Shown: positions 49,193-64,000, counted from the first letter of the stretch. The stretch is DNA of 64,000 nt from Gemmatimonadota bacterium (GCA_965116475.1 OZ220691.1:1024001-1088000); one strand, 5' to 3'. A program made the numbers and translations. The notes: generated by a model not told the origin, from the letters alone.

Positions 49193-49996
49193 ATGCCAGG
49201 AACACGCCGGGGACTTCATGGGTCGCGCAGGCGCGGCATGGCGATGTGGCTCTCGCTTGCGGGCCTGATCCTGCATCTGGCCGTCGCGGCGCCGGCGCGG
49301 GCCCAGGTGGACCCGGACGCCATCATCGACCGGGTGGACCGGATGCTGCGGGGTGATTCCAGTCGGGGCGTCGCGACGATGGAGGTCGTGACCGAGCACT
49401 GGGAGCGGCGGATGACGATGGAGATCTGGTCGCTCGGCACGGATTATTCGCTCGTCCGCCTGCGGGAGCCGCGGAGGGAAGCCGGAACGGCGACCCTGAA
49501 GGCAGCCGAGGACATCTGGAACTACCTCCCCAAGGTCGACCGGACGATCAAGGTTCCCGCCTCGATGATGGGCGGATCGTGGATGGGGTCGCACTTCACG
49601 AACGACGACCTGGTCAAGGACAGCAGGCTCGTCGAGGACTACGACATCGAACTCGTGTTCGACGGACAGGATGCGGACGGCGTGGCGGTCTGGGACTTTC
49701 GCCTGACCCCGAAGCCGGAGGTGCCCGTCGTCTGGGGGCACATCGAGTACCGGATCCGGCAGTCCGATGACATGCCGATCCGGGCGGAGTTCTTCGACGA
49801 GGACGGCGAGCTGGCCAGGACCGTCGAGCACGGCGACTACACCGAGTTCAGCGGGCGGATCGTTCCCCGGGTCATGAACATGCACCCGGCGGACAAGCCG
49901 GACGAACGCACGACGATCCGCTACGAGGAACTGGAGTTCGACATCGACATCGAGCCGTCCTTCTTCTCACTCCGGACCCTGCAGCGCGGGAGGTAG
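49193..49996 (+). CDS. LolA-like outer-membrane lipoprotein-sorting protein (start may be 49238)
   Basis: Signal peptide ARAQ, GTATLK, WNYLPKVDRTIK, SWMGSHFTNDD, FFSLRTL. Confidence 0.85.
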   Translation: MPGTRRGLHGSRRRGMAMWLSLAGLILHLAVAAPARAQVDPDAIIDRVDRMLRGDSSRGVATMEVVTEHWERRMTMEIWSLGTDYSLVRLREPRREAGTATLKAAEDIWNYLPKVDRTIKVPASMMGGSWMGSHFTNDDLVKDSRLVEDYDIELVFDGQDADGVAVWDFRLTPKPEVPVVWGHIEYRIRQSDDMPIRAEFFDEDGELARTVEHGDYTEFSGRIVPRVMNMHPADKPDERTTIRYEELEFDIDIEPSFFSLRTLQRGR

Positions 49997-50002
49997 CGGC
50001 GC

Positions 50003-51259
50003 GTGACGGGCCGATTGTGGCGAATCGGATGGCGCAACCTCGGCCGCAACCGGAAGCGAACAGTTCTTACCGCGCTCGGCCTCGGGGTCGGCTATTTCGC
50101 CGTGGTGTTCATGGTCGGATGGGCCGAGGGCGTCTCGACGGAACTCGTCGAGAACGCCACGTCGCTCGTCAGTGGACAGATCGAGATCCACGATGCCGAC
50201 TACCGGCCCGAGCGCAGCCTGTACGAGACCATCGGCGGCCGCGAGGGGGCCGACGTGGGGGAGATCCTGCGCACCATCGAGGCCGATCCCTCGGTCGTGG
50301 CCGTCGCCCCGCGCGTGTACGCGAGCGGGCTCGTGAGTTCCGGCGAAGCGACATCGGCCGGCGCTCTGCTCGGCGTCGACCCCGAGCGCGAGGTGGCGCT
50401 GAGCCGTTTTCTGGATCCCCTCGTAGAGGGCCGCCTGCCTGCCACCGGCCGATACGAAGCGGTGGTGGGAGATGAGATGGCGCGGCAGCTCGAGCTGAGC
50501 GTCGGAGACGAACTCGTCGTCGTCGCCTCGGCGGCGGACGGCTCGATGGGCAACGACCTGTACACGGTCACCGGCATCTTCCGGACCGGCCTGCTCGAGT
50601 TCGATGCCGGCACCATGGTCCTGCCGGTCGCGGACCTGCAGACGCTCGTGGCCCTCGATCCGGGTCGGGTCCACGAAATCGCGGTCAGCACCGACGACCC
50701 GTCGCAAGCCGACCTGACCGCGACCCGCCTCGGCGCCGCCCTTGGAGCCCCCGAACGGGCGATGTCGGTCGCGCCATGGACGGAACTCAATCCGGTGCTT
50801 GCCCAGTATGTCGCTCTCGCCGATGCGACGTACTGGATCTTCATCGTCCTCATTTACTCGGTCGCCAGCTTCGGCATCGCCAACACGACGCTGATGGCCA
50901 CCTTCGAACGCCGCCGCGAGTTCGCCGTCATGCTGGCGCTGGGTGCATCGCCGCGGTCCGTGGTGGGCACAGTGCTGTCCGAGGCGGTCGCGACCGGCGC
51001 CATGGGGCTGGGACTCGGGACCGCCGTCACGGTGCCGCTGCTGGTCTGGTTCTCGACGGCGCCGCCCGACCTCGGATGGCTCTACGGAAGTCTCACCGTG
51101 GAGGGCGTCCTGCTGACCCCCAGTCTCCGCGTGGGGACCAACGTGCCGGCATGGATCTGGGCGACGATCGGCCTGATCGTCACGGCACTCGTCTCCGCCC
51201 TCTACCCGGCACTCCGCGCGGCGCGGGTGCCGCCCGCCGACACTCTGTCGGGCCTGTAG
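50003..51259 (+). CDS. FtsX/LolE/MacB-type ABC permease
   Basis: WRNLGRNRKRT, large periplasmic loop, ANTTLMATFERRREF, YPALRAAR. Confidence 0.9.
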   Translation: MTGRLWRIGWRNLGRNRKRTVLTALGLGVGYFAVVFMVGWAEGVSTELVENATSLVSGQIEIHDADYRPERSLYETIGGREGADVGEILRTIEADPSVVAVAPRVYASGLVSSGEATSAGALLGVDPEREVALSRFLDPLVEGRLPATGRYEAVVGDEMARQLELSVGDELVVVASAADGSMGNDLYTVTGIFRTGLLEFDAGTMVLPVADLQTLVALDPGRVHEIAVSTDDPSQADLTATRLGAALGAPERAMSVAPWTELNPVLAQYVALADATYWIFIVLIYSVASFGIANTTLMATFERRREFAVMLALGASPRSVVGTVLSEAVATGAMGLGLGTAVTVPLLVWFSTAPPDLGWLYGSLTVEGVLLTPSLRVGTNVPAWIWATIGLIVTALVSALYPALRAARVPPADTLSGL

Positions 51260-51261
51260 CC

Positions 51262-52539
51262 GTGCGTCTGCGCGTCCTGGTCCGGCTCGCCCTCAGGAAC
51301 CTGCGCCGTCATCTGCGGCGCACGGTGCTGACCGCTTCGGCGATGATCGTCGGCGGCGCCTTCCTGGTTTGGTCGATGACGGTCGACGACGGCAGCCACG
51401 AGCAGTGGGTCGATTCGGGTGTGCGCATGGGGAGCGGACACGTGACCGTCGAGCGGCCCGAGTACCGGCTGCGCCGTCAGATCGACAACCGCCTGACGAC
51501 GGACGTCAGCCGCGCCGCGGAGCAGGCGCTGGCCTCTCCGGAGATCGCGCCGCATGTCGTGGCCACGTCCGCCAAGCTCGGCATCAACGGGCTGGCGAGT
51601 TCGGCGGCCGGGGCGCGCCCGGCGCAGATCGTGGGGGTCGACCCCGTCGCCGAAGCGGGCTTCGGCATGATCGACGACGGAGTGGTCGAAGGGCGCTACC
51701 TCGAGCCCGATGATCGGCTGGCGGCCTATGTCGGCGCCGATCTGGCCCGCAGCCTGGGACTCGAGATCGGATCGCGCTTCGTCGTGCAGGCGCAGGGCGC
51801 CGATGGCGAGATTGCGGGGCAACTGCTCCGCGTGGTAGGGATCTTCCGCAGCCGCGTGCCCGCCATCGACCAGGCGACGATCCACATCACGCTCGCGACG
51901 GCCGGCGAGTGGCTCGGTTCCGGGAGCGACGTGACCCACGTCGCGGTCGTCCTGCAGAGCAGCGATCGGACCCGACGGGTCTCGGACCACCTGGCGGTGG
52001 CGCTGGCGGAGCCGGTGGAACGCGGCGAGGCACGCGTCGTGGGGTGGCGCGAGGCGAACCCTGTCCTGGCGGCGGGGATCGCGATCGACGAGTTCGGGAA
52101 TTACGTGATTCAGGGGTTCCTGTTCGTCATCATCGCGTTCGGGATCGTCAACACGGTGCTGATGTCGGTGATGCATCGCCAGCGCGAGTTCGGCGTGCTT
52201 CAGGCGCAGGGGCTGACGCCGGGCCAGACGGGCACCGTCGTGCTCATCGAGGGCCTCACGCTGTCCGCTGTCAGCGGGCTGGTCGGCGTCGTCCTGGGAC
52301 TCCTGGGCACGTGGTATTTCTTCGGCGACGGGCTCGACACGTCGGTCTTCATGCAGGACATCGACGAGTTGACATTCTCGGGGGCCGCCGTTGACCCTAT
52401 CATCGTCCCGATCTTCGGGGTACGACGCATCATCCAGATCGTCGGGTTCATCCTCGGCATTGGCATTGTCGCCTCGGTCTATCCGGCGCTGCGCGCTTCC
52501 CGGGTCGATGTTACCGAGGCGATGAAGTTCGATCGGTAG
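51262..52539 (+). CDS. FtsX/LolE/MacB-type ABC permease (second copy)
   Basis: ALRNLRRHLRRT, VNTVLMSVMHRQREFG, YPALRASR. Confidence 0.9.
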   Translation: MRLRVLVRLALRNLRRHLRRTVLTASAMIVGGAFLVWSMTVDDGSHEQWVDSGVRMGSGHVTVERPEYRLRRQIDNRLTTDVSRAAEQALASPEIAPHVVATSAKLGINGLASSAAGARPAQIVGVDPVAEAGFGMIDDGVVEGRYLEPDDRLAAYVGADLARSLGLEIGSRFVVQAQGADGEIAGQLLRVVGIFRSRVPAIDQATIHITLATAGEWLGSGSDVTHVAVVLQSSDRTRRVSDHLAVALAEPVERGEARVVGWREANPVLAAGIAIDEFGNYVIQGFLFVIIAFGIVNTVLMSVMHRQREFGVLQAQGLTPGQTGTVVLIEGLTLSAVSGLVGVVLGLLGTWYFFGDGLDTSVFMQDIDELTFSGAAVDPIIVPIFGVRRIIQIVGFILGIGIVASVYPALRASRVDVTEAMKFDR

Positions 52540-52585
52540 CCGCTCTCGTGCCGACCCCTTGCCGCGCAAGGAGAATCGAGGTGTG

Positions 52586-53287
52586 ATGGCAGTGCGCGAC
52601 ACGGCAGCCGCCCGGACCGACGGCGTCTGGAAGGTCTTCCAGCAGGAAGCCGAATCTGTGCAGGCGGTCCGCGACGTCAGCCTGACCGTAGAACGTGGCG
52701 AGTTCACCGCGCTGGCGGGGCCGTCGGGGTCCGGCAAGACGACGCTGCTGAATCTGATCGGTGGTCTCACCCGCCCCACGCAGGGACGGGTCTGGGTCGC
52801 CGGGCGGGAGGTGAGCCGCATGTCGAACCAGGAGCTCGCGCGGCTCCGGCTCGAGGAGGTGGGCTTCGTCTTCCAGGCCTATAACCTGCTCCCCGTGCTC
52901 TCCGCGCTGGAGAATGCGGAATTCCCGATGCTGCTCCAGGGCGTGCCCGCGGAGGAGCGTCAGGCGCGGGTCCGCGAACTCTTTGCGCGGACGGGAATGG
53001 AAGGGCTCGAAGACCGGCGCCCGGGCAAGCTGTCCGGCGGCCAGCAGCAGCGCGTCGCCGTCGTGCGCGCGGTGGCCAGCCGTCCGGCCCTGGTGCTCGC
53101 GGACGAGCCGACGGCGAACCTCGACTCGGTCACGAGCGAAGCGCTCCTCGATGTCATGGGCGAGTTGAATCGCGACCTCGGGGTGACCTTCGTCTTCGCC
53201 ACCCATGACGGCCGCGTCATGGAGCGGTCTCGGCGCCTGGTCCGCATGGTCGACGGCACCGTGCGTGACGACGAACGCCGATCCTAG
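52586..53287 (+). CDS. LolD-like ABC ATP-binding protein
   Basis: GPSGSGKTT, LSGGQQQRVA, LADEPTANLD, ATHD. Confidence 0.93.
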   Translation: MAVRDTAAARTDGVWKVFQQEAESVQAVRDVSLTVERGEFTALAGPSGSGKTTLLNLIGGLTRPTQGRVWVAGREVSRMSNQELARLRLEEVGFVFQAYNLLPVLSALENAEFPMLLQGVPAEERQARVRELFARTGMEGLEDRRPGKLSGGQQQRVAVVRAVASRPALVLADEPTANLDSVTSEALLDVMGELNRDLGVTFVFATHDGRVMERSRRLVRMVDGTVRDDERRS

Positions 53288-53360
53288 AACCTGTCCCGGT
53301 CGCCTGTACGGCGTGCCACCCGCCTGGACACCGCACCGGTCATCGCCTGAGGCGCGAGCA

Positions 53361-54476
53361 ATGGACATCCACGAAGCGATAGCGATCAGCCAGGAGCGAT
53401 TGGCGGGGGAAGGCGCCACCATGCATGACCTGCTCGGGCCCCTGCGAGACAGAATCGCTCCCGTACTGATCGGGGAGCAGGAGTGGGAACACGTGCTGGC
53501 GCGGGCGGGAACCCTGCCGATCACCATGGGTGCCCAGCCGTTCGGTTTCGAGCTGCCGCTGCACGACCGTCGGCCGCGGGCGGATTTCGGCGTCTCGCTG
53601 GCGAGCGGCAACCGGTCGGGGGCGTTTTTCGAAGAGAAGGCGCGACGCGATCCATCGGATCGCACGGCGGCGGCGGTCCGTCGCCTGTTTCGCAGCATGG
53701 AGGCCGCGGACTCGCCCCTCCGCGCCATTGTCGGCCGCAAGCTGATGCTGGAATACGACATCGGGTCGGGGGGCGACGGCGATCCGCTGCCGGGGATGTT
53801 CCTGCGGCCCAACGAACGCACGATCGCCGGCGGCGCCGGGCAGCAGCACGATGTCGGCGTCGTGGTCGACGGACTCGTGGCCTGTCACGACCTGGAACCG
53901 AGCGCGGCGGAGCGGAGCAACGCCGAGCGGGTGTATCTGGCGCAACCGGAAGATACCCGCCTCGACTCCTTCGGCCTGTTTCCGTCACGCGCACGCACGA
54001 TCCGCCTGGCGATCATGGGCTTTGCCGGGCAGCGGGATGTCTGTTCCTTTCTCGAGGAAATCGCCTGGCCCGGCAACATCGCGACCGTGGAGACGGTGCT
54101 TGCACGCTTCAGCGAGCGCGCGGACATCGTCAGGACCGGCGTGAACGTCGACGCGCAGGCGGATGGCATCGGTCCGGCGCTCGGCCTGACGCCCATAGTC
54201 AGGCAGAGATATGCGGCTGATTCCCGGGTCTGGATCGATGGTTTGACGGATTGGCAGCCGGTGCTGGAGGCCCTGCGCCACGAAGACCGTGTAGTGCCGG
54301 AGAAGGTCGCGGCGCTGGCCGGCTGGGTCTCGCAACCGACCCTTCTGTTTGGCAGAACCGGGCGGTTTGTACTGATGCGCGGAATTCACCATCTTAAGCT
54401 GGTCATCGCCGGAGACCGGGTTGAACAGATCAAGGCCTATGTCTACATGGTGCTTTCGGGTGCCCTCGCGCCCTGA
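53361..54476 (+). CDS. Hypothetical protein, putative ABBA-type (peptide) prenyltransferase
   Basis: 371-aa soluble ORF with FGFE..L..RADF, LMLEYD, IRLAI, GIGPALGL, RGIHHLKL..IKAY. The CDS is solid; the function is inferred from motif resemblance and context. Confidence 0.55.
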   Translation: MDIHEAIAISQERLAGEGATMHDLLGPLRDRIAPVLIGEQEWEHVLARAGTLPITMGAQPFGFELPLHDRRPRADFGVSLASGNRSGAFFEEKARRDPSDRTAAAVRRLFRSMEAADSPLRAIVGRKLMLEYDIGSGGDGDPLPGMFLRPNERTIAGGAGQQHDVGVVVDGLVACHDLEPSAAERSNAERVYLAQPEDTRLDSFGLFPSRARTIRLAIMGFAGQRDVCSFLEEIAWPGNIATVETVLARFSERADIVRTGVNVDAQADGIGPALGLTPIVRQRYAADSRVWIDGLTDWQPVLEALRHEDRVVPEKVAALAGWVSQPTLLFGRTGRFVLMRGIHHLKLVIAGDRVEQIKAYVYMVLSGALAP

Positions 54477-54512
54477 TGTCGGCCTCCCGGCGCGCCCGGG
54501 GAGGTCGCCACG

Positions 54513-55823
54513 GTGAAGGAACTCGGCAGCGGATCGTGCAGGAAGATTGCCGTCGTCGGACGCGGCACCGCGGGCGCGCTGGCCGCCGCCAGCGTATCGC
54601 GGTTGCAGCCGGAGCCCGAGCATGAGCTGCACCACATCTACGATTCACGCATTCCGATCATCGGCGTGGGCGAAGGAAGCTGGCCCGGCCTGGTCCGCGA
54701 GCTGCAGCACCTGCTGCAGTTGCCCCACGAGACGGTTCAGCAACGCCTGAACGGCACCCGCAAGTTCGGCAACCGCTTCGAGGGCTGGGGTCGACGCCGA
54801 CAGGACTTCACTCACTACTTCACGCCGCAACAGGTGGCCTACGCCTACCACCTGTCGGCGGACCTGATGGCGGAGCTGCTGTGCGCGAGTACGCAGGCCC
54901 GCCACATCGACGCGAAGGTGACCGCGATCCGGCGAGTGAACGGAGGCGCACAGGTAGAGTTCGAGGACCGTGAGTCCGAGCGCTACGACCTGGTCTTCGA
55001 TGCCCGCGGCTATCCACGGCAACTGGACCCGCAGAAGCACATCGACATTTCCTTCATCCCCACGAACTGCGCCGTCATTCGCCGCGCCCCCCCGGTCATC
55101 GAGGCGCCGCCGAACGCGCCGGTCCGGGAACCCACGTATACCCGTGCAGTGGCGCGTCCGCACGGATGGGTGTTCGTCATTCCGCTGACCGTGCACACAT
55201 CCTACGGCTATGTCTTCAACAAGGACGTGTCCGGGCTCGATGCGGTCGAGGCGGACTTCGACGAGCTGCTTGCGGAGGAGGGTGTGTCGGACTTCGAGCA
55301 GCGCGCCGTCATTCCGTTTCCGAATTTCGTCCACCGCCGGATCTATGACGGCGCCGTGGCCCGCGTCGGGAATGCCGCCGCCTTCATGGAGCCGCTCGAA
55401 GCGACCGCCATCAGGTTGGCGCAACTGCAGGTCGCGCTGATTCTGCGCATGCGGTTCCACCGGCCAGCCGAATATGTGCAGCGCGACGCGCCCGTCATCA
55501 ACCGCTTTCTGGTCACCGACGCGCTCCTGGCCGGCCTGTTCGTCGGTTGGCACTATTCCTGCGGTTCGAAGTACGACAGTGCGTTCTGGCGCAACGCCCG
55601 GGACCGCGTGTGGCCGAACCACCGCGACGCCGCCGATCCGCGGGCCGTGGACTGTTCCGCCTTGCGCAAATTCGACGAGATGATCGAACTGGTCGACGCG
55701 CAGGTCCCCGATCCGGCGGACTGGGAGCGGCAGTGCGCGTTCTTTCCCGTGAGCAGCTTCGCGCAGATAGCCCACGGCCTGGGCGTGCCATTGGAGTGGC
55801 AGCGCGACGCCCGGCCGACGTAG
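54513..55823 (+). CDS. Flavin-dependent tryptophan-halogenase family enzyme (probable peptide halogenase)
   Basis: IAVVGRGTAG, IGVGEGS, TRKFG (catalytic Lys position), GWVFVIPL, FMEPLEATAI; GGAGG RBS. Confidence 0.85.
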   Translation: MKELGSGSCRKIAVVGRGTAGALAAASVSRLQPEPEHELHHIYDSRIPIIGVGEGSWPGLVRELQHLLQLPHETVQQRLNGTRKFGNRFEGWGRRRQDFTHYFTPQQVAYAYHLSADLMAELLCASTQARHIDAKVTAIRRVNGGAQVEFEDRESERYDLVFDARGYPRQLDPQKHIDISFIPTNCAVIRRAPPVIEAPPNAPVREPTYTRAVARPHGWVFVIPLTVHTSYGYVFNKDVSGLDAVEADFDELLAEEGVSDFEQRAVIPFPNFVHRRIYDGAVARVGNAAAFMEPLEATAIRLAQLQVALILRMRFHRPAEYVQRDAPVINRFLVTDALLAGLFVGWHYSCGSKYDSAFWRNARDRVWPNHRDAADPRAVDCSALRKFDEMIELVDAQVPDPADWERQCAFFPVSSFAQIAHGLGVPLEWQRDARPT

Positions 55824-55871
55824 CCGGCCGGCGGCCGACGCCGCCGCCCCCGGGTCACCGCCGTGCCCCGG

Positions 55872-57044
55872 TCAGAAGTACCAGCTCAGGGAGAGATACA
55901 CGAACAGGCCCGCCAAGCCGTACTCCGAAGGCAGCGGACGGGCGGCCGTGGCGTCGTCGTCACCCAGACCGAGGAATGCGCCCGTGACCACCGCCACATC
56001 GTTACTGGCTGAGTAGGCGACGCTCGGGCCCATCGTTGCGCTCCGGTCGTTCAGGTTCCAGAGCACGAGACTGCTCAGGCTCCAGAGCGGATGCACCTGG
56101 TAGGACGCCCGGACGACCGCCTCGTCCCGTCCGAGCACCTGATGTTCGCCGCGCAGGAATGTGGCCGATCCCAGGGTGGCCAGGTACGCGTCCGGTCCGT
56201 CCGCGCCCAGGCCGTCGCGCTGGTACTCGGCCGCGAGCGTCAGGTCCCTCCCGCCGACCTGGAGCTGCCGGTCGAGACCGAGCGTGCCGCGGAGAACGAC
56301 CCGGTCCGGGAGTTTGCGCAGCACGGCCTCCCCTCGGACGGCCCAGCCTCCCAACGATCCGGCCGCGCCGAGGGCCCCCGCCGGATCCCCGTACACGATC
56401 CCGCCCCATGCCGAGACTTCCCAGTTCCGCACCGTCGTGAGACCGCGTATCAGCGCAGTCACCTCCTCCTCGCCGGCCAGCGACCGGGTCGGTCTCACGA
56501 CGAGGTCGATCTCGCTCAGCGCGCTCGGAAAGAAACGGAGCCGGGCCGCGTCGACCCCGGCGCGGAACTCCCGGAACGGGTCCACCGGGTTGAAGGGCGT
56601 GTACGGATCGCTCGGCGTGAGAAAGAGCGCGGTGCCCCACGACACCGCCTGCCGCCCCACGGTGATCTCGAAGCGCTCACTCCCCCACTCGACGTACAGG
56701 CGATCGAACCGGTGCCGCCAGACGACATGGTCCCGCTCCGCCGCCGTCCACTGGAGTCGGAGCCACTCGCCGCCGCCGGGCACCGCGCCGAGGTGGAACT
56801 CGGGCGCCTGGGCGAGGCTCCGGAACGTCAGCAGATGCTCGTAGGCGGCGCCGAATCCAAAGGCTCCCGCGCCCCACTCTCCGAAGAGTCGCACCCGGTT
56901 GAACTCGCCCAACTGGCCTTCACGGGTCCCGACGAGAGGAATGGCCTGGACGTAGCCGTTCAGCTGCATGGCCTGACCGGATGAAGTGTCGCAGAGAGCC
57001 GAGAGCAGCACGGCCGCGCAGGCGGCCCCGGCGCGAAGCCTCAC
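55872..57044 (-). CDS. Outer-membrane beta-barrel protein of the type accompanying LolA-like/ABC modules
   Basis: GGAGG then GTG at 57044, signal peptide, DRLYVEW, VGRQAVSWG, GVDAAR, terminal LSWYF. Confidence 0.75.
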   Translation of the reverse strand: MRLRAGAACAAVLLSALCDTSSGQAMQLNGYVQAIPLVGTREGQLGEFNRVRLFGEWGAGAFGFGAAYEHLLTFRSLAQAPEFHLGAVPGGGEWLRLQWTAAERDHVVWRHRFDRLYVEWGSERFEITVGRQAVSWGTALFLTPSDPYTPFNPVDPFREFRAGVDAARLRFFPSALSEIDLVVRPTRSLAGEEEVTALIRGLTTVRNWEVSAWGGIVYGDPAGALGAAGSLGGWAVRGEAVLRKLPDRVVLRGTLGLDRQLQVGGRDLTLAAEYQRDGLGADGPDAYLATLGSATFLRGEHQVLGRDEAVVRASYQVHPLWSLSSLVLWNLNDRSATMGPSVAYSASNDVAVVTGAFLGLGDDDATAARPLPSEYGLAGLFVYLSLSWYF

Positions 57045-57282
57045 CGTCCCTGGAACCTCCGCTCCCACGGTCCATCGGTGAGCCTCGGCATCATCCTCCC
57101 CCCGTTCGCGCCCACGGTCACGCCGACACCGGCAATCTACATTCTCAGCGTAGTACCGAACACTCGGCGGCGATTCCGACACCTGCACTGCGTACTCGGA
57201 CGTCCTATATTCCCCCGATTCTCCGCTCAATCCGAACGGGATTGTCCGTGCTCGATACCTGGTGGGGAGGCGAGGCAGGGTC

Positions 57283-57834
57283 GTGTTCAATAATCCGTTT
57301 GATTCGTTTCACGACACCGTTGCTGAAGCAAAGCAGGAACGGGAACAACTCGACCGGCTGCTGACGATTTCCACGCCCCGGGAGCGTCTGCTCGTCGCCG
57401 GCGTCGGGCTGTGGTTGTTGATCTTCGTGACGTGGCTCTTCTTCGGTAACGTAGCCCGCAGCCTCGCGGTGGACGGTGTGCTCGTCGACCCCGGCACAAA
57501 CCTGTCCGAAGCCGGCCGGTCCGTGCAGGCGCTGGTCTGGATCGAGAACGACGTCGCGCCGCAGATCAGGGCAGGGATGCCGGCGGTGATGGAGCTGGGT
57601 GCGGCGGCTGGAGAAGCGGGCGCGATGAGCGCAGAAGTCGCGGCGATTTCCGCCGTTCGCTCGTCCGAGGTTCCCGCCGCCTTCGAGTCTGCGGTGCCGA
57701 TGTCGTTGCACCGCCTCGATATCGCGCTGGACGAGAACCTCGACCTTGCCGCCATGGCGGGCAGGGAATGCCGGATCGTCATCGATATGGGCACGCAGTC
57801 TCCGGTCGCGTTCTTGCGGATGGGGCGGTCATGA
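57283..57834 (+). CDS. Short NHLM bacteriocin system secretion (HlyD-like) protein
   Basis: EQLDRLLTISTPRERL-TM-FG..DGVLV matches the NHLM membrane-fusion protein N-terminus; only about 183 aa. Confidence 0.7.
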   Translation: MFNNPFDSFHDTVAEAKQEREQLDRLLTISTPRERLLVAGVGLWLLIFVTWLFFGNVARSLAVDGVLVDPGTNLSEAGRSVQALVWIENDVAPQIRAGMPAVMELGAAAGEAGAMSAEVAAISAVRSSEVPAAFESAVPMSLHRLDIALDENLDLAAMAGRECRIVIDMGTQSPVAFLRMGRS

Positions 57835-57835
57835 T

Positions 57836-60046
57836 ATGGCGCTGACCGCCTTCGGGCGCGCTGGCGACAAGGCCGCACCGAGCGTCGAGACACGGCGGAT
57901 CACCACGCCGATCCTGTTGCAGATGCACGCGTCGGAATGTGGCGCCGCCTGCCTCGGCAGCATCCTCGCCTACTTCGGACGCTGGGTTCCGCTGACGGAA
58001 TTGCGGGAAAGATGCGAGGTGAGTCGGGACGGGAGCAGTGCGGCGAGCATCGCGCGCGCCGCCAGGCACTACGGCCTCGAATGCAGCGGACTCAGCCTGC
58101 GCGCCAGTCAGCTGAAGAAGTTGCAGTTGCCTCTGATCGTGTTCTGGCAGTTCAGCCATTTCGTTGTCCTCGAGGGGTTCGACAGTCGCCACTTCTATCT
58201 CAATGATCCGTCCACGGGGCGGCGCAGGCTTTCGGCGGAAGAGTTCGAAAAGGGCTACAGCGGGATTGCGCTGCGATTCAAGCGGGGCTCCGGTTTCAGA
58301 CCCGGCGGCGAACAGCCCGGATTGTTCACGCAGTTGGGCACCCTGCTCGCCGGATCGCGGAGCGTGCTTGCCTGGGTGATTGCCTGCGGTCTCATGTTGA
58401 CGCTGCTGGCCCTTGTCGTCCCCGCATCCCTCAGCGTGTTCGTGGACGATGTTCTGGAGAACCGGGGCCCCTGGGGCGGGCTCGTGGCTGCCCTGCTCGG
58501 CGGCGGCATCCTCGTGTACGTCCTGTCCCTGCTCAAGCATCGGTTCCTGAAGCGGTTCGCGGTTCGGATCTCGGTGATTGGCTACAGTCGAGGCCTGTCG
58601 CGGCTGCTGCGGCTGCCGGTGGAGTTTTTCGAACACCGTCTCGTAGGCGATCTGACGGATCGAGTCTCGTCCATCGACAGAATCGCCAGGAACCTGACGG
58701 AACAGTTCCTGGTGCTCGTTATCGACATGGGAATGAGCGCCGTGCTGCTCGTTGCCATGTTGGTCTACGATGTCCGGCTCACGCTGGTTGTGTTGCTTCT
58801 GGCCTTTCTGCACGGCGTGCTGGCGCACTTTCTCAACGGGCTCAGGGCGGTGCGAAGCCAGGCGATGAGGCGCGAACAGGGACTGTTGATCGGCGTCGGC
58901 ATGCAGATGCTGAATCACGCCGACAATCTGCGCATGACGGGATCGGACGACCGTCTGTTTTCGCGCTGGAGCGGCCATCAGGCGCGCGAACTGGAGGCCC
59001 GCCGGCACTATTCCGCGCTCGGCTCGGTCAACACCGCGCTCCCGGGCATGATCGCCGCACTTCGCAGCGCGGCGGTCCTGGCCATCGGGGGAAGCCTGAT
59101 CCTGGCCGGAGAGATGACCCTGGGCGCGCTGGTCGGGTTCTATATCCTGGCCGAGATGTTCCTGTCGCCGGTTGGGCGCTTCCTGGAGTTCGCCGGGCAG
59201 CGCCAGGCGCTCGAAACCGATCTGCAGCGACTCGAGGATATCTCGAAGGCCGCGGAAGACCCCGCCTTCAGCCGCCGGAGTCCGCAGTCGGAGTCGATTC
59301 CCACCTTCAAGGGCCGGTTCCAGCTCACCGGCCGGCTCGAGCTGCGAGACGTCAGCTTCGGCTTCAACAAGAGCCGGCCCGCTCTGATCAAGGACTTCAA
59401 TCTCGTAATCATGCCGGGGCAGCGGGTTGCCGTGGTCGGTCCCAGCGGATCCGGCAAGTCGACCCTCGCGCGTCTGATTGGCGGTCTCTATCAGCCCTGG
59501 TCCGGCGAAATCCTGTTCGATGGCCACCCCCGGGATGAGATTCCCGAGGAGGTGCTGCGGCGGTCCATCTCCATGGTGGATCAGGAGGTCGTGCTCTTTT
59601 CCGCGTCCGTGCGCGACAACATCACCCTGTGGAACCCCGCCGTTCCGGATGAGGCCATCTTCGCGGCGACACGCGATGCCCAGATCCACGACGAAATCCT
59701 GCTGCGGCCGAACGGGTACTCGACCCGGGTCGAGGAAGGCGGCGTGAATTTCAGCGGCGGCCAGCGCCAGCGGCTGGAGATCGCCCGGGGGCTGCTGGGC
59801 AATCCGACGCTGCTCATTCTGGATGAGGCGACCAGCGCCCTCGACGCCGCGACGGAGGAATACGTCGATGACGCCCTGAGACGTCGCGGAGTCACCTGCC
59901 TGATCGTGGCGCACCGGCTGAGCACCGTGCGGGACTGCGACGAGATCATCGTGCTCGACAAGGGCGTCGAGGTGCAGCGCGGGACGCATGACGAGCTGAT
60001 GGCGGACCAGGCCGGCACGTACTACAAGCTGGTCAGGTCCGGCTGA
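57836..60046 (+). CDS. NHLM bacteriocin system ABC transporter, C39 peptidase/permease/ATPase
   Basis: TPILLQMHASECGAACL (catalytic Cys), VSRDGS, HFVVLEG, NDP, GPSGSGKST, FSGGQRQRLEIAR. Confidence 0.93.
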   Translation: MALTAFGRAGDKAAPSVETRRITTPILLQMHASECGAACLGSILAYFGRWVPLTELRERCEVSRDGSSAASIARAARHYGLECSGLSLRASQLKKLQLPLIVFWQFSHFVVLEGFDSRHFYLNDPSTGRRRLSAEEFEKGYSGIALRFKRGSGFRPGGEQPGLFTQLGTLLAGSRSVLAWVIACGLMLTLLALVVPASLSVFVDDVLENRGPWGGLVAALLGGGILVYVLSLLKHRFLKRFAVRISVIGYSRGLSRLLRLPVEFFEHRLVGDLTDRVSSIDRIARNLTEQFLVLVIDMGMSAVLLVAMLVYDVRLTLVVLLLAFLHGVLAHFLNGLRAVRSQAMRREQGLLIGVGMQMLNHADNLRMTGSDDRLFSRWSGHQARELEARRHYSALGSVNTALPGMIAALRSAAVLAIGGSLILAGEMTLGALVGFYILAEMFLSPVGRFLEFAGQRQALETDLQRLEDISKAAEDPAFSRRSPQSESIPTFKGRFQLTGRLELRDVSFGFNKSRPALIKDFNLVIMPGQRVAVVGPSGSGKSTLARLIGGLYQPWSGEILFDGHPRDEIPEEVLRRSISMVDQEVVLFSASVRDNITLWNPAVPDEAIFAATRDAQIHDEILLRPNGYSTRVEEGGVNFSGGQRQRLEIARGLLGNPTLLILDEATSALDAATEEYVDDALRRRGVTCLIVAHRLSTVRDCDEIIVLDKGVEVQRGTHDELMADQAGTYYKLVRSG

Positions 60047-62982
60047 TGCGGGACACGAGGCCGGGGTACACGTCCATCGCGGAACTCGCCGCCCGCTCCG
60101 GCGAGTCCGTGCCCTGCGCCGGCAACCTGCCGGTGAAGCTCGACGATCCGGACACTGTCTGGTTCATCGATCAGGGCGCCGTCAATCTGTTCCTGGTCGA
60201 ATTCAAGGACGGGGTCGAGCAGGCGGCGCCGCAGCACCTGCTGCGCCGCGAATCGGGCTGGCTGCTGCCGGGCGTCGCGCCGGACGGACCAAACGATGAG
60301 GAAGACACCACGCTCAGCCTGATCGCCAAGGGATCGCCGGGCACCGTCCTGAAACGGCTGTCGGCCTCCGTGCTGTCCGAGGTCGATCCGGCGGAGATGG
60401 CGGAACAGACCGATACCTGGCTGACCGCGATCACGGACACACTCTCGCGTTTTGCGAGCCGCCTTCCGCGTCCGACGGTGCTGGCCAAGCCCGGTCCGAT
60501 GCGGACCCCGGCTCCCTGTACGCTGTCCGTACAGCGCGGCGTCGTATGGGTGTCCGAACCGCCGCGCGGCACCAGCCTCTTCATGGACCTGGTCGACCAG
60601 GCGGAAATCGTCGAGGCGGACGGCTCACACGAAGCGGTGATACCGCTGACGCGAACAAGCTGGATCATCCTGTCCGACGAGGTGACACTCTCGGGCTGGT
60701 CGACGGAGACGCTGGCACAGCGGGGCGTCCTGCTCCCGGCGCTCGCATCCTTCCACGCGGTTGCCTTCGCCCTGGAGCGCCTCAACCGCCGACTGGCCGT
60801 GGTCGATGATGCGAACCTGGAGCGCGCGCGGACCACGAGCCGCCGCACGGTCGAGAGGGCCGCGCGGCAGCGGCTCTTCAATATCTATGATCTGCCGATC
60901 GACCGGGAGACCAGTGTCGAGGACACGTCGCTGGCGGACGCCCTGCAGGCGATCGGACGCCGTGAAGGAATCGATTTCAAGATCCCGGTGCGCTCGGATC
61001 CTTCCGGTCCTCCGGTCAGCCTCGTTGACGTTCTCGATGCTTCGGGCGTGCGCGCCCGGCGCGTGCGGTTCGGGGCCGAGGGCGCCTGGTGGCGCGGCGA
61101 CAGCAACGCGATGCTGGCATTTCGCGCCGAAGACGGCCAACCCGTGGCGCTCCTGCCAGGATGGCTGGGCCGCTACCGGGAATTCGATCCGGTCAGCAAG
61201 CGCAGCGTTCGGATGACGGCGGATCGTGCCGCTGCGCTGGCGGATGGGGCCTGGGTGTTCTACCGGCCACTGCCGGTGGGGAACGTGCAACCGGCGGACC
61301 TGCTGAGGATCGCGCTGCATGGATCGGCGGCGGATCTGGCGCGGCTGGTGATGGCCGGGCTTCCGGGCGGCCTGATCAAGCTCGTGCCGGCGTTCGCGCT
61401 CGGGTTCGTTGCGAACCAGACGGCGGCGGGCGGAAGTGCCGGAGCGCTCTATGCCGTGGCCGTGGCGGTGGCGGGGTTCGGCCTGCTCGGCGCACTGCTG
61501 CACCTGTTTCAGGGCACGGTGATGATGCGGATCGAGGGTCGCTCTTCACGGGTCGAAGCGGCCTTCTGGGACCGTCTCATGCGCCTTCCGCCAAGCATGT
61601 TGCACGGCCGTCGGGCCGGCGATCTGGCCGTGTCGGGAATGACGTTCCAGAATCTTCGCGACGGGTTGCAGGGAGTCGCGGCCGACGGCCTGCTGTCGAT
61701 CATTTTTCTGCTCCCGGTGCTTGGCGTCATCTTCCTCTACGATGCCACGCTGGGGACCGTTGCCCTCGCCTTCAGCCTGGCTTCGCTCCTGATCACCGTC
61801 GTCCTCGGGCTGCGCCAGATTCCGCCCTATGGCCGGATGATCCGCGCGGCGCGGCGCGTCTCCGGCCGGCTATTCCAGATCGTGGGCAGCATCGGCAAGC
61901 TGCGTGTGGAAAACGCGGAAGCGTCGGCTTTCGCCATCTGGGCGCAGGACTACCGGGAGCAGAAACGCACGGAACTCGAGCTGGGCGCGCTCGAGGGACA
62001 TTCGCGGGCATTCGGTGCCGCGCTCCCCCTGCTTGCCGCCGGGGTCCTGCTGTTCGCGGCCGTAGCCGTGGACGGGCCCCTCCCGGTCGGCGATTTTCTC
62101 GTCGTCTACCTTGTCTTCATCGCCTTCCAGTCCGCCGTCGCCCGACTCGGCGAGTCCTTTGGCGCGGTCGCCGCCGTGCTCCCGGCGTTCGACCAGATGC
62201 GCCCGCTCCTGGCGGCGGTTCCCGAGGCCGAAGTCGAAGGAGCGCCGGTCGAGTATCTGGGCGGCGACATTTTCTTCGACCGCATTTCCTACCGGTACGA
62301 CCCCGACGGCCCGTTGATCCTCGACGACGTCACGATTCATGCCCGCCCCGGGGAATTCGTCGCGATCGCGGGCGAGTCCGGCGCCGGCAAGAGCACCCTC
62401 TTCCGGTTGGCGCTTGGATTCGACCGGCCCACGTCCGGCGCCGTGTACTACGACGGACGTGACCTGAGGAACCTGAACCTGAAACAGGTGCGCCGCAGGA
62501 TCGGCGTGGTGCCGCAATCCGTTGGACTCCATCCCCTGGATCTCTGGGACAACCTGGTCGGTCACCACGATGAGGTGGCGAGCGACGAGGTCTGGAGCGC
62601 GGCGCGCGTCGCCGATGTCGAAGCGGAGATCAAGGGCATGCCCATGGGCATGATGACCATGGTCGGCACGAGCGGGAATGTCCTGTCGGGCGGCGAGAGT
62701 CAGCGCGTTTCAATCGCCCGGTCGGTGATCGGCAGCCCGCGAATCATGCTCTTCGACGAGGCGACCAACTGGCTGGATAACGAGAGCCAGGCAAAGGTCA
62801 TGCAAAACCTCACCGCCCTGACCTCCACCCGCGTCGTCATCGCGCACCGCCTGTCCACGCTGGAGCAGGCCGATCGCATCTACGTGTTGAAGGCGGGAAG
62901 AGTCGTGCAGAGCGGCTCCTTCAACGAACTCATGGAGGTCGACGGGGTGTTCAGAGACCTGGTCAAGAGGCAGGTCGCCTGA
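60046..62982 (+). CDS. NHLM bacteriocin system ABC transporter, second (peptidase-less) ATP-binding subunit
   Basis: TGATG coupling; long N-terminal extension, ASGVRARRV..WWRGD, WDRLMRLP, GESGAGKST, LSGGESQR, FDEATN. Confidence 0.9.
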   Translation: MRDTRPGYTSIAELAARSGESVPCAGNLPVKLDDPDTVWFIDQGAVNLFLVEFKDGVEQAAPQHLLRRESGWLLPGVAPDGPNDEEDTTLSLIAKGSPGTVLKRLSASVLSEVDPAEMAEQTDTWLTAITDTLSRFASRLPRPTVLAKPGPMRTPAPCTLSVQRGVVWVSEPPRGTSLFMDLVDQAEIVEADGSHEAVIPLTRTSWIILSDEVTLSGWSTETLAQRGVLLPALASFHAVAFALERLNRRLAVVDDANLERARTTSRRTVERAARQRLFNIYDLPIDRETSVEDTSLADALQAIGRREGIDFKIPVRSDPSGPPVSLVDVLDASGVRARRVRFGAEGAWWRGDSNAMLAFRAEDGQPVALLPGWLGRYREFDPVSKRSVRMTADRAAALADGAWVFYRPLPVGNVQPADLLRIALHGSAADLARLVMAGLPGGLIKLVPAFALGFVANQTAAGGSAGALYAVAVAVAGFGLLGALLHLFQGTVMMRIEGRSSRVEAAFWDRLMRLPPSMLHGRRAGDLAVSGMTFQNLRDGLQGVAADGLLSIIFLLPVLGVIFLYDATLGTVALAFSLASLLITVVLGLRQIPPYGRMIRAARRVSGRLFQIVGSIGKLRVENAEASAFAIWAQDYREQKRTELELGALEGHSRAFGAALPLLAAGVLLFAAVAVDGPLPVGDFLVVYLVFIAFQSAVARLGESFGAVAAVLPAFDQMRPLLAAVPEAEVEGAPVEYLGGDIFFDRISYRYDPDGPLILDDVTIHARPGEFVAIAGESGAGKSTLFRLALGFDRPTSGAVYYDGRDLRNLNLKQVRRRIGVVPQSVGLHPLDLWDNLVGHHDEVASDEVWSAARVADVEAEIKGMPMGMMTMVGTSGNVLSGGESQRVSIARSVIGSPRIMLFDEATNWLDNESQAKVMQNLTALTSTRVVIAHRLSTLEQADRIYVLKAGRVVQSGSFNELMEVDGVFRDLVKRQVA

Positions 62983-63017
62983 ACCGAATCGGCAGACCGG
63001 AGCATTTCGAGACATCG

Positions 63018-64000
63018 ATGAACGGACCCATGGACGCGGACGATCTCCTCGTATCAAGAGCTCTCGTATCAAGAGCTGATGAAGACGGCGACTTTCGCGA
63101 ACGTCTTCTCCGAAAACCCAGGGAGACCATCGAGACGGAATTCGGCGTGACGCTGGCCGAGGACCATGAGATTCACGTGCACGAAGAGACGTATACCGCG
63201 ACGCACGTGGTGCTCCCGCCGCGGAGCAAGCTCAGCGAGGCCGAACGAGAGGCGGCGAGGACCGGTGCGGCATCGCTCGAGTTTCTTCGAAGGACACTCC
63301 ACGACCCCGCACCACCGCTCCGCCCTCCCGCAGGGCAGGAAGAGGGGGGCCGATGCAGCGGGGCCTCCCCGGAGGCGCTGGCCGGCGCGGCGAGGGAAGG
63401 GATCCGCCGCGGGCTCGCCTTCCTGGAATCCACGATCGACGAGAATGGGGCTTGGCACTGCATCCGGTTCAACGTGGCCGACCCGGAGATCCCCAGGCAT
63501 TTCGAGAGGCCCCCCTTCGTGTCGGCTCTCTGCGTGCTTGCCCTTGAGAGCTCCGATGAGCCGCGGGCCAAGGCGATTTGCACCGCTACGAAGGCATATC
63601 TCATCGACACCATCGAATATCCCGGATTCTGGCGGTACTACCGCCACCTCCCGCCGGATCTCGATAGTACTGCACTCTGTTCGCTCGTCATCGGGACGCA
63701 CCCCTGGATCTTGCTTGGAAGGAACGTTCCGGGGATGCTGGCGAATCGCGACGAGGAAGGCCGCTTCATGACCTGGGTGCTGGCGGAAGACGAACCCGAC
63801 GTCGTGTCGCGCTTTCGCATCGAGGCCGACCCGGTCGTCAATGCGAATGTCCTCGCCTGCCTCGGCGACCATCCGGAAACGAGGGATGCCCAGCTCTGGC
63901 TGGAAGCCCTGGTAACCGAAGGCAACCTCGAGGGCTCGTCGAAGTGGTATCCCGACACGGTCACGATCTACCATGCGATCACACGCGCGATGGTCTGTGC
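63018..64000 (+). CDS. NHLP leader-like domain fused to a class II terpene cyclase/prenyltransferase-squalene-oxidase-repeat-like domain (runs off the right edge; absent from the ORF track)
   Basis: Open for 327 codons from ATG 63018: ...LVSRADEDGDFRERLLRKPRETIETEFGVTLAEDHEIHVHEETYTATHVVLPPRSKLSEAEREAARTG..., then GIRRGLAFLESTIDENGAW, GFWRYY..LPPDLDSTA, DPVVNANVL, SKWYP. Confidence 0.8.
   Translation, partial: MNGPMDADDLLVSRALVSRADEDGDFRERLLRKPRETIETEFGVTLAEDHEIHVHEETYTATHVVLPPRSKLSEAEREAARTGAASLEFLRRTLHDPAPPLRPPAGQEEGGRCSGASPEALAGAAREGIRRGLAFLESTIDENGAWHCIRFNVADPEIPRHFERPPFVSALCVLALESSDEPRAKAICTATKAYLIDTIEYPGFWRYYRHLPPDLDSTALCSLVIGTHPWILLGRNVPGMLANRDEEGRFMTWVLAEDEPDVVSRFRIEADPVVNANVLACLGDHPETRDAQLWLEALVTEGNLEGSSKWYPDTVTIYHAITRAMVC
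63048..63077 (+). repeat. Exact 15-bp in-frame duplication (LVSRA x2)
   Basis: ctcgtatcaagagct at 63048 and 63063. Confidence 0.95.

Follow-up and report, generated by a model that had tools for sequence, protein, structure and literature searches.

A Gemmatimonadota locus that is very probably a copy of the srp proteusin cluster, with conserved accessory genes that may point to a terpenoid-bearing peptide

The srp (sponge-derived RiPP proteusin) gene cluster for a peptide made by the ribosome and modified after translation (a RiPP) was reportedly described by Nguyen et al. (J Am Chem Soc 2021), and the RiPP enzymes NctPC and ChrPC, to which we compare part of it, are said to come from work by Hubrich et al. 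(Chem 2024). Here, we examine a locus in the genome of a Gemmatimonadota bacterium (single contig, 3.62 Mb, ~70% G+C), in a stretch of 64,000 nucleotides (G000:C1:1024001-1088000; hereafter, the window) that holds, from position 49193 to its end, genes for a tryptophan halogenase, peptide export, and a fusion of an NHLP domain to a terpene-cyclase-like domain. In the described srp system, SrpE is a proteusin with the core LCCCW, the YcaO protein SrpC converts its three cysteines to thiazolines, and the flavin-dependent SrpI carries out leader-dependent bromination of the C-terminal tryptophan, with Lys84 as the catalytic residue and Tyr102 and Tyr110 self-brominated (PMC10858898, PMC10286304). 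According to a preprint, few biosynthetic clusters in sponge microbiomes are shared as widely or transcribed as strongly as srp, and transcription of the LCCCW precursors in sponges is high in phylum after phylum (10.1101/2023.06.09.544420). The MprE/MprC/MprD system of a methanotroph likewise has NHLP leaders, which are recognized by the RiPP recognition element (RRE) of a fused YcaO (PMC12455567). In NctPC and ChrPC, a RiPP prenyltransferase domain adds a C10-C20 chain to Trp, which an MstE-like domain then cyclizes (PMC13290415). Among class II terpene cyclases, the DXDD motif is described as sometimes variable, with the middle Asp as the general acid; the drimenol synthase AsDMS is active with a DXDT variant and has a single beta domain like MstE (PMC12232559).

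An initial annotation of the window had listed a contiguous run of genes for a LolA-like protein, two permeases and an ATPase, an enzyme of no known family, a Trp-halogenase-like enzyme, an outer-membrane barrel, three NHLM transport proteins, and the NHLP-cyclase fusion, and had read them as a candidate new proteusin pathway. Pfam and NCBIfam scans, which for 49193-64000 covered the long plus-strand open reading frames (ORFs), find all of these genes in that place and order. The annotation also saw no YcaO and no free precursor and supposed that the cluster continues to the right. Both genes are indeed missing from the window but not from the cluster; they and the gene for an AlkB-type hydroxylase lie within 5 kb past the window end, in the next 20 kb, which we took as L001 (window-type coordinate = L001 coordinate + 62000).

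These flanking genes, together with the halogenase, indicate that the block is very probably a Gemmatimonadota copy of the srp cluster. The 85-aa SrpE-ortholog precursor (L001 4750-5007, minus strand) matches the NHLP model TIGR03793 at 66.9 bits, above the cut-off, which bears out the NHLP/proteusin assignment, and its C-terminus, …EAISAG-LCCCW, supplies the Trp-containing core that had been anticipated downstream. The SrpC ortholog (L001 2340-4655, plus strand) is a fused winged-helix/E1-like/YcaO cyclodehydratase whose gene starts six bases after the stop codon of the NHLP-cyclase fusion and is followed, after 95 bases, by the precursor gene on the opposite strand. It matches Pfam YcaO (E 3.6e-97), exceeds the cut-offs of the SagD model, with 278 bits, and of TIGR03882, with 146 bits, and is the only YcaO gene in the genome. 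No SagB-type dehydrogenase was found in the genome, which agrees with a thiazoline product. The SrpI ortholog, a 436-aa flavin-dependent peptidyl-tryptophan halogenase (54513..55823, plus strand), matches Pfam Trp_halogenase (E 4.9e-46) and solved Trp halogenases (E 3.7e-27). Read from the GTG at 54513, its Lys84, Tyr102, and Tyr110 carry exactly the numbers that they have in published SrpI; the earlier labeling of this enzyme as SrpI-type was correct. The LCCCW core, the YcaO, and a halogenase with these three residues together identify the srp cluster; the pathway is therefore already known, and the core of this copy shows nothing new relative to srp.

By analogy with the published orthologs, the precursor would be bound by the fused E1-like/YcaO protein, its three cysteines would be converted to thiazolines, and the halogenase, guided by the leader, would brominate the C-terminal tryptophan. 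As far as the available text of the srp papers goes, the described clusters and this one have in common the NHLP precursor with LCCCW, the fused YcaO, and the halogenase for the C-terminal Trp, and neither has an azoline oxidase. In the corresponding text on the mpr system (PMC12455567), a flavin mononucleotide oxidase leads to thiazoles and there are ten precursors and no halogenase, whereas this locus has one precursor and no oxidase was found.

As described for srp in the available text, the cluster found here is spread over many phyla of sponge microbiomes. A search at E ≤ 0.001 gives 1108 relatives of the fusion protein, and among the best 120 identity is 76-91%; the few that are named come from Gemmatimonadota, including Candidatus Palauibacter, and from Gamma- and Deltaproteobacteria. 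Going by the names on hits of 90% identity, the bacterium studied here probably belongs to Candidatus Palauibacter. To describe neighborhoods, we examined ±10 kb around the fusion gene in the best 80 of 175 genome-contig stretches that encode a relative, and the resulting counts are lower bounds, some contigs ending early. These 80 loci are from metagenome-assembled genomes (MAGs) of at least eight phylum-level groups, named as Gemmatimonadota, Gamma-, Alpha-, and Deltaproteobacteria, Nitrospirales, Bryobacterales, Binatia, and others, with fusion orthologs that are 72-91% identical. Near the fusion lie the gene for a 371-aa protein (at least 73 loci), the YcaO (at least 70), the AlkB-like gene (at least 67), ABC1 and ABC2 (at least 59 each), the halogenase (at least 54), and the mini-HlyD (at least 49). 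A true precursor is present in at least 61 of the 80 loci, with the core LCCCW in 59, LCCSW in one, and LSCCW in one. The genes thus occur together in many genomes of many phyla, and the tests that the initial annotation set for itself do not refute it. Within the taxonomic order of the window, the fusion is found in six of 81 genomes, that is, in this genome, in five of 21 others of its genus, and in none of 59 from other genera. Such patchiness, with identities that stay high from one phylum to another, agrees with the horizontal spread that has been published. In a run labeled as a sponge metatranscriptome (X1), contigs are 90-99% alike in all 30 bins of a 4.1-kb stretch, although these contigs belong to relatives and an RNA library can hold DNA. 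One MAG contig, CBDBZU010000004.1 (L059, L060), carries two copies of the cluster ~2 Mb apart, and one of its precursor cores is LSCCW.

The NHLP-cyclase fusion (P0001, 438 aa) starts at 63018 on the plus strand and runs past 64000 to 334 bases beyond the window end (full gene, L001 1018-2334; G000:C1:1087018-1088334). It has an NHLP-like domain, then a conserved linker, then a domain with a weak squalene-hopene-cyclase match. The NHLP domain scores 45.7-49.5 bits against TIGR03793 (E about 1e-12, with 4.4e-12 for the lower score and 2.8e-12 for the ORF as it stands in the window), below the cut-off of 50.9, and the N-terminal 83 residues share 34% identity with the leader of the precursor, reaching the cleavage-site Gly. 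As judged by this alignment, the domain is clearly a diverged copy of the leader, homologous to it, and not a precursor. This leader copy is kept in all 115 full-length fusion orthologs that we aligned. One ortholog, G089:C90:3175-4461, has a single in-frame TGA, which may be a sequencing error or decay.

The C-terminal domain has 820 matches among 1.84 billion representative proteins, many of them stand-alone proteins of 300-340 aa and others fused to P450, UbiA prenyltransferase, glycosyltransferase, sulfotransferase, acyltransferase, or DUF2332. In a 68-member alignment the consensus motif is PPDLDDTA, which in the fusion reads D214-L-D216-S; D216 is invariant and D214 is conserved in at least 90% of members. 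A profile built from these members covers the entire cyclase domain of drimenol synthase (PDB 9mhs residues 239-524) and brings the motifs into register (E 3.1e-29). Further matches are squalene-hopene cyclase (5e-26), AstC (4e-20), and MstE (4.7e-5), as well as 8paj/8pak and 6ij1, and one match is a "prenylcyclase." By these profile and motif comparisons, the domain is a member of a single beta-domain class II terpene cyclase family that keeps the general-acid Asp. The "cyclase" label of the initial annotation is thus justified at the level of sequence family, given the 9mhs match and this Asp. The fusion has the single beta domain and the aligned general-acid Asp in common with AsDMS, AstC, and MstE. 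Those enzymes act on free farnesyl diphosphate or geranylgeranyl-benzoate and are stand-alone or fused to a HAD phosphatase, whereas the srp cyclase domain is fused to a homolog of a RiPP leader.

Between the ATPase and the halogenase genes lies the gene for the 371-aa conserved protein, a candidate prenyltransferase (53361..54476, plus strand). Its ORF opens at 53205, and we place the start at Met53 because of stops in the orthologs. The protein has 788 homologs, none of them named or with a Pfam domain. Searches with two family profiles (A2 and A3) against PDB sequences gave no matches at E up to 10, Pfam at E up to 10 gave nothing relevant for any of the 27 A2 members, and hhalign of A2 against the Trp_DMAT-like P0206 gave no match. 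A profile search for longer fused forms found none, although such a blank is weak evidence. By hhalign, however, the profile of the 371-aa family matches residues 4-332 of P0240 (probability 91.5%, E 8.8e-7), a 670-aa protein whose residues 418-659 are the same cyclase domain as in the fusion, and two further cyclase fusion proteins (P0254 and P0198) match the family. These natural fusions of distant relatives link the 371-aa protein to the cyclase in function. The protein-language-model neighbors of one homolog (P0312) include Trp_DMAT-type prenyltransferase clusters, with a score of 0.91 (201/256 features) at low recognition, which we take as a lead only. The third gene of this group encodes a 695-aa AlkB-type hydroxylase with a GlnE-like C-terminus (L001 5125-7212, minus strand). 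Its residues 43-363 match the alkane 1-monooxygenase AlkB (8f6t) at E 7.3e-50, and its HELxH, EHxxxHH, and HxDHH boxes align with those of 8f6t. On the opposite strand, an 810-aa ORF (L001 4804-7236, plus) is Arg-rich and belongs to no family; we rejected it as an antisense shadow of the AlkB-like gene.

These three genes suggest a terpenoid branch to the srp pathway. The peptide would receive an isoprenoid through the 371-aa protein; the class II cyclase domain, which its own leader copy would keep within the enzyme complex, would cyclize this isoprenoid through protonation by Asp216; and the AlkB-type enzyme would hydroxylate it. The LolA-like protein and the barrel, joined in this lineage by a MacB-type ABC transporter, would carry the lipophilic product across the envelope. 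We judge that prenylation, cyclization, hydroxylation, and envelope transport, taken jointly, come near to an even chance without reaching it. The product as a whole would be a peptide-terpenoid hybrid, a brominated tris-thiazoline pentapeptide that is prenylated, cyclized, and AlkB-hydroxylated and then passed to the LolA-like carrier and the barrel; this we put forward tentatively, at somewhat less than an even chance. By calculation, the tris-thiazoline 79Br pentapeptide has a neutral monoisotopic mass of 650.08, which would rise to 854.27 with a farnesyl and to 922.33 with a geranylgeranyl group, and by 15.99 more with a hydroxyl, while cyclization would leave it unchanged. Comparison with NctPC and ChrPC raises the possibility, about as strong as that for the joint steps, that the srp cyclase and the 371-aa gene are a split version of such an enzyme. 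In the available text (PMC13290415), NctPC and ChrPC likewise belong to RiPP pathways in which an MstE-like single-domain class II cyclase follows a prenyltransferase on a Trp-containing peptide. There, both activities are in one protein, whereas the srp genes are separate and the cyclase has an NHLP leader copy in place of the prenyltransferase domain; also, the putative srp prenyltransferase has no detectable ABBA or trans-IDS signature.

Several observations weigh against this reading of the cluster, its terpenoid steps included. The 371-aa protein has no match among Pfam, NCBIfam, or PDB sequences, profiles included, and the low-recognition language-model score is its sole link to prenyltransferases. 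Family scans of the cluster ORFs show no isoprenoid-supply gene. In the leader copy of the fusion, the L(X)4L motif has Arg in place of its second Leu (LSEAER). The motif is described as one that YcaO RRE domains and SrpI need if they are to bind a leader (PMC12455567, PMC10858898), so the Arg argues against docking exactly like the precursor. The third Asp of the DxDD motif is Ser in every NHLP-fused member examined; this position is non-Asp in AsDMS as well, according to the available text, with DXDT there and DLDS in the srp fusion. ABC1 and ABC2 fall slightly short of their curated NHLM cut-offs. We found no mention of a terpene or prenyl group in the available text of the srp papers searched and no treatment of prenylation in the LCCCW literature searched. 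A literature search also found no link between NHLP or proteusins and terpene cyclases, although print may still hold one.

The initial annotation's three NHLM transport genes hold in part, that is, for ABC1 and ABC2 but not for a full HlyD. ABC1 (57836..60046, plus strand), with C39 peptidase, permease, and ATPase domains, matches TIGR03796 at 839.6 bits (cut-off 853.3) and Peptidase_C39 at E 1.1e-34; its ORF opens at 57746, with an ATG at 57836 just after the stop of the preceding gene. ABC2 (60046..62982, plus strand), a permease/ATPase, matches TIGR03797 at 657.4 bits (cut-off 709.4) over residues 294-977, and its full-length orthologs share 73-94% identity. The HlyD is represented only by a 190-aa mini HlyD-like membrane protein (57262..57834, plus strand) that aligns to just positions 6-56 of the 421-position TIGR03794 (17 bits; cut-off 156); 49 of the 80 loci have it at full length, with 51-88% identity. 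Together, these three genes are predicted to be an NHLM-like export set with a reduced adaptor. Judged by the families of these proteins, ABC1 would use its C39 peptidase domain to cut after …SAG, and all three would export the product. The first 293 residues of ABC2 (60046-60930) form an N-terminal extension that is conserved over its full length in orthologs from other phyla and that matches no family in NCBIfam or in Pfam, where residues 1-295 gave no hit.

The left part of the block encodes envelope proteins: a 267-aa LolA-like periplasmic protein (49193..49996, plus strand; Pfam LolA_like 163 bits, E 7.6e-48), a 418-aa MacB/FtsX-type ABC permease 1 (50003..51259, plus; MacB_PCD and FtsX domains), a MacB/FtsX-type permease 2 of ~427 aa with an inferred start (51256..52539, plus; FtsX E 7.4e-18), a LolD/MacB-like ABC ATPase (52559..53287, plus; ABC_tran E 4e-36), and, between the halogenase and mini-HlyD genes, an outer-membrane barrel-like protein (55872..57290, minus; weak DUF1302, E 5e-4). 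The barrel is a 472-aa ORF whose true start is probably ~80 codons in. The LolA_like gene is the only one in the genome. Permease 1 and permease 2 score 149 and 86 bits against the lolCE model (cut-off 362) and the ATPase scores 210 against LolD (cut-off 308), and another site in the genome matches lolCE better (324 bits); the LolCDE-like genes of the cluster are therefore, by these scores, paralogs and not the housekeeping Lol system. Permease 2 orthologs in relatives share 89-96% identity. Compared with srp in most other phyla, this lineage differs in gene order and has the extra MacB/FtsX-type ABC transporter beside the LolA-like gene.

These left-hand genes might be an unrelated envelope system that lies beside the srp genes by chance, which we consider unlikely. 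In its favor, tblastn finds the permeases in only 17 of 80 halogenase-centered loci, exclusively of Gemmatimonadota type, and G030, a genome of the genus in which no srp gene was found, still has the aminotransferase and LolA-like genes along with a truncated permease. Searches with models built from LolA/barrel pairs, in 63 halogenase-centered loci with at least 4 kb on each side, place a LolA-like gene within 4 kb of the halogenase in 26, a barrel in 29, and both in 22, leaving 37 of the 63 without a LolA-like gene. However, in those 22 loci LolA_like and then the barrel are directly upstream of the halogenase, and the loci are from several phyla (Gamma- and Alphaproteobacteria, Binatia, and others). 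In other phyla the halogenase has LolA-like neighbors of 23-31% identity; for example, the order in a gammaproteobacterial MAG (L113) runs from the precursor through LolA_like (E 2e-61) and a 410-aa protein, again weakly matching DUF1302, to the halogenase. Within the genus, the LolA-like gene is present in all six srp-positive genomes (G000, G002, G006, G018, G048, and G089), while 11 genomes examined in both searches have neither srp genes nor the LolA-like gene. Two of three apparent exceptions, G016 and G086, are contigs that end at the srp border, and the third is the truncated remnant in G030. The better lolCE elsewhere in the genome also speaks against an unrelated envelope system. Because the pair adjoins the halogenase across phyla and the LolA-like gene co-occurs with srp genes within the genus, we take the LolA-like protein and the barrel to be a frequent accessory module of srp clusters, to which a MacB-type ABC transporter has been added in this lineage.

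Three other explanations bear on the pathway itself. Instead of acting on the peptide, the fusion, its 371-aa partner, and the AlkB-like enzyme might make or modify a separate small terpenoid or lipid and be merely co-inherited with the peptide genes, with the NHLP domain serving regulation or assembly only. The lack of any prenyl-donor gene seen in the cluster or prenyltransferase signature found would fit, as would the fusion of cyclase-domain homologs to P450, UbiA, and glycosyltransferase, partners typical of small-molecule pathways, and the closest solved relative, drimenol synthase, works on free farnesyl diphosphate (PMC12232559). Unless the cyclase has some tie to the peptide machinery, it is difficult to account for its leader copy, kept in 115 of 115 orthologs, and the genes remain beside the precursor and the YcaO across phyla; we regard a separate terpenoid as quite unlikely. 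It is less likely still, and in our view improbable, that the 438-aa fusion is itself a substrate, either cut by C39 after …ARTG and exported by the NHLM proteins so that the cyclase is extracytoplasmic, or modified by the YcaO. Its NHLP domain does align to the leader through the cleavage-site Gly (EAARTG against EAISAG), and the cluster has two ABC exporters with periplasmic and outer-membrane parts. Against this, the stretch after the putative cut (SLEFLRRTLHDPAPPLRP) is strongly conserved, which suggests a structural linker, a genuine 85-aa precursor is encoded in the same cluster, and an ABC exporter with a peptidase domain is unlikely to take a folded 330-aa toroid as cargo. The original proposal of a new, undescribed proteusin pathway has its unusual accessory genes to recommend it and nothing further. 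The LCCCW core, the YcaO, and the C-terminal Trp brominase are those of the srp system as published in the available text, which makes novelty extremely improbable; that reading was right in kind but wrong in calling the pathway new.

The srp cluster spans ~49193 to 69212 in window-type coordinates, limits that we set because the flanking genes on both sides rarely recur in related loci. To the left, an aminotransferase gene recurs in four of 80 loci; to the right of the AlkB-like gene are genes for a choice-of-anchor B/FG-GAP protein, an acyltransferase, and a PQQ dehydrogenase, and the FG-GAP gene recurs in four of 80 related loci, close relatives in every case. No tRNA genes are present in 40000-64000 of the window, and a scan for promoters and terminators was uninformative, with one promoter-like site against 1.4 expected and 11 terminator-like sites against 6.0 ± 2.6.

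Some related contigs are broken or interrupted in this left part. Contigs G016:C61 and G086:C38 (L170, L171) stop inside permease 2 or ~120 bases into the 371-aa gene, and assemblies probably break at the srp border because near-identical copies are present in other community members. In G006:C1:2222951-2230834, permease 1 is interrupted near residue 119 by ~6.6 kb of other DNA, and in G030:C7 (L172 11099-11455) it stops at the same residue, ~119; this position may be a hot spot of mobile insertion or deletion. The LolA-like ortholog at G002:C1:3316602-3317402 has one in-frame TAA, which could reflect a sequencing error or decay.

Farther to the right in the window genome, L001 13283-13639 encodes a Phd/YefM-type antitoxin, and a C-5 cytosine DNA methylase is split over two overlapping ORFs (L001 16055-17886; G000:C1:1102055-1103886), the second of which joins the methylase C-terminus to an HhH-GPD (endonuclease III-like) glycosylase domain. 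About 100 kb away, at G000:C1:1190578-1190973, two weak NHLP-model matches fall inside one 270-aa frame, which is probably a nitrile hydratase/thiocyanate hydrolase alpha subunit rather than a precursor.

This copy of srp adds nothing on the three characterized enzymes; its value is in a hypothesis, testable by mass spectrometry, that emerges from the conserved accessory genes. The fusion cyclase, its 371-aa partner, the AlkB-type hydroxylase, the LolA-like carrier, and the barrel point to a lipophilic product that is probably terpenoid-bearing. If so, the 371-aa protein would represent a new prenyltransferase family that has diverged beyond recognition. Joining a leader to a RiPP enzyme has so far been a trick of enzyme engineers, and a cyclase recruited by a built-in copy of the leader of its substrate would be a natural "leader-fused" tailoring enzyme.

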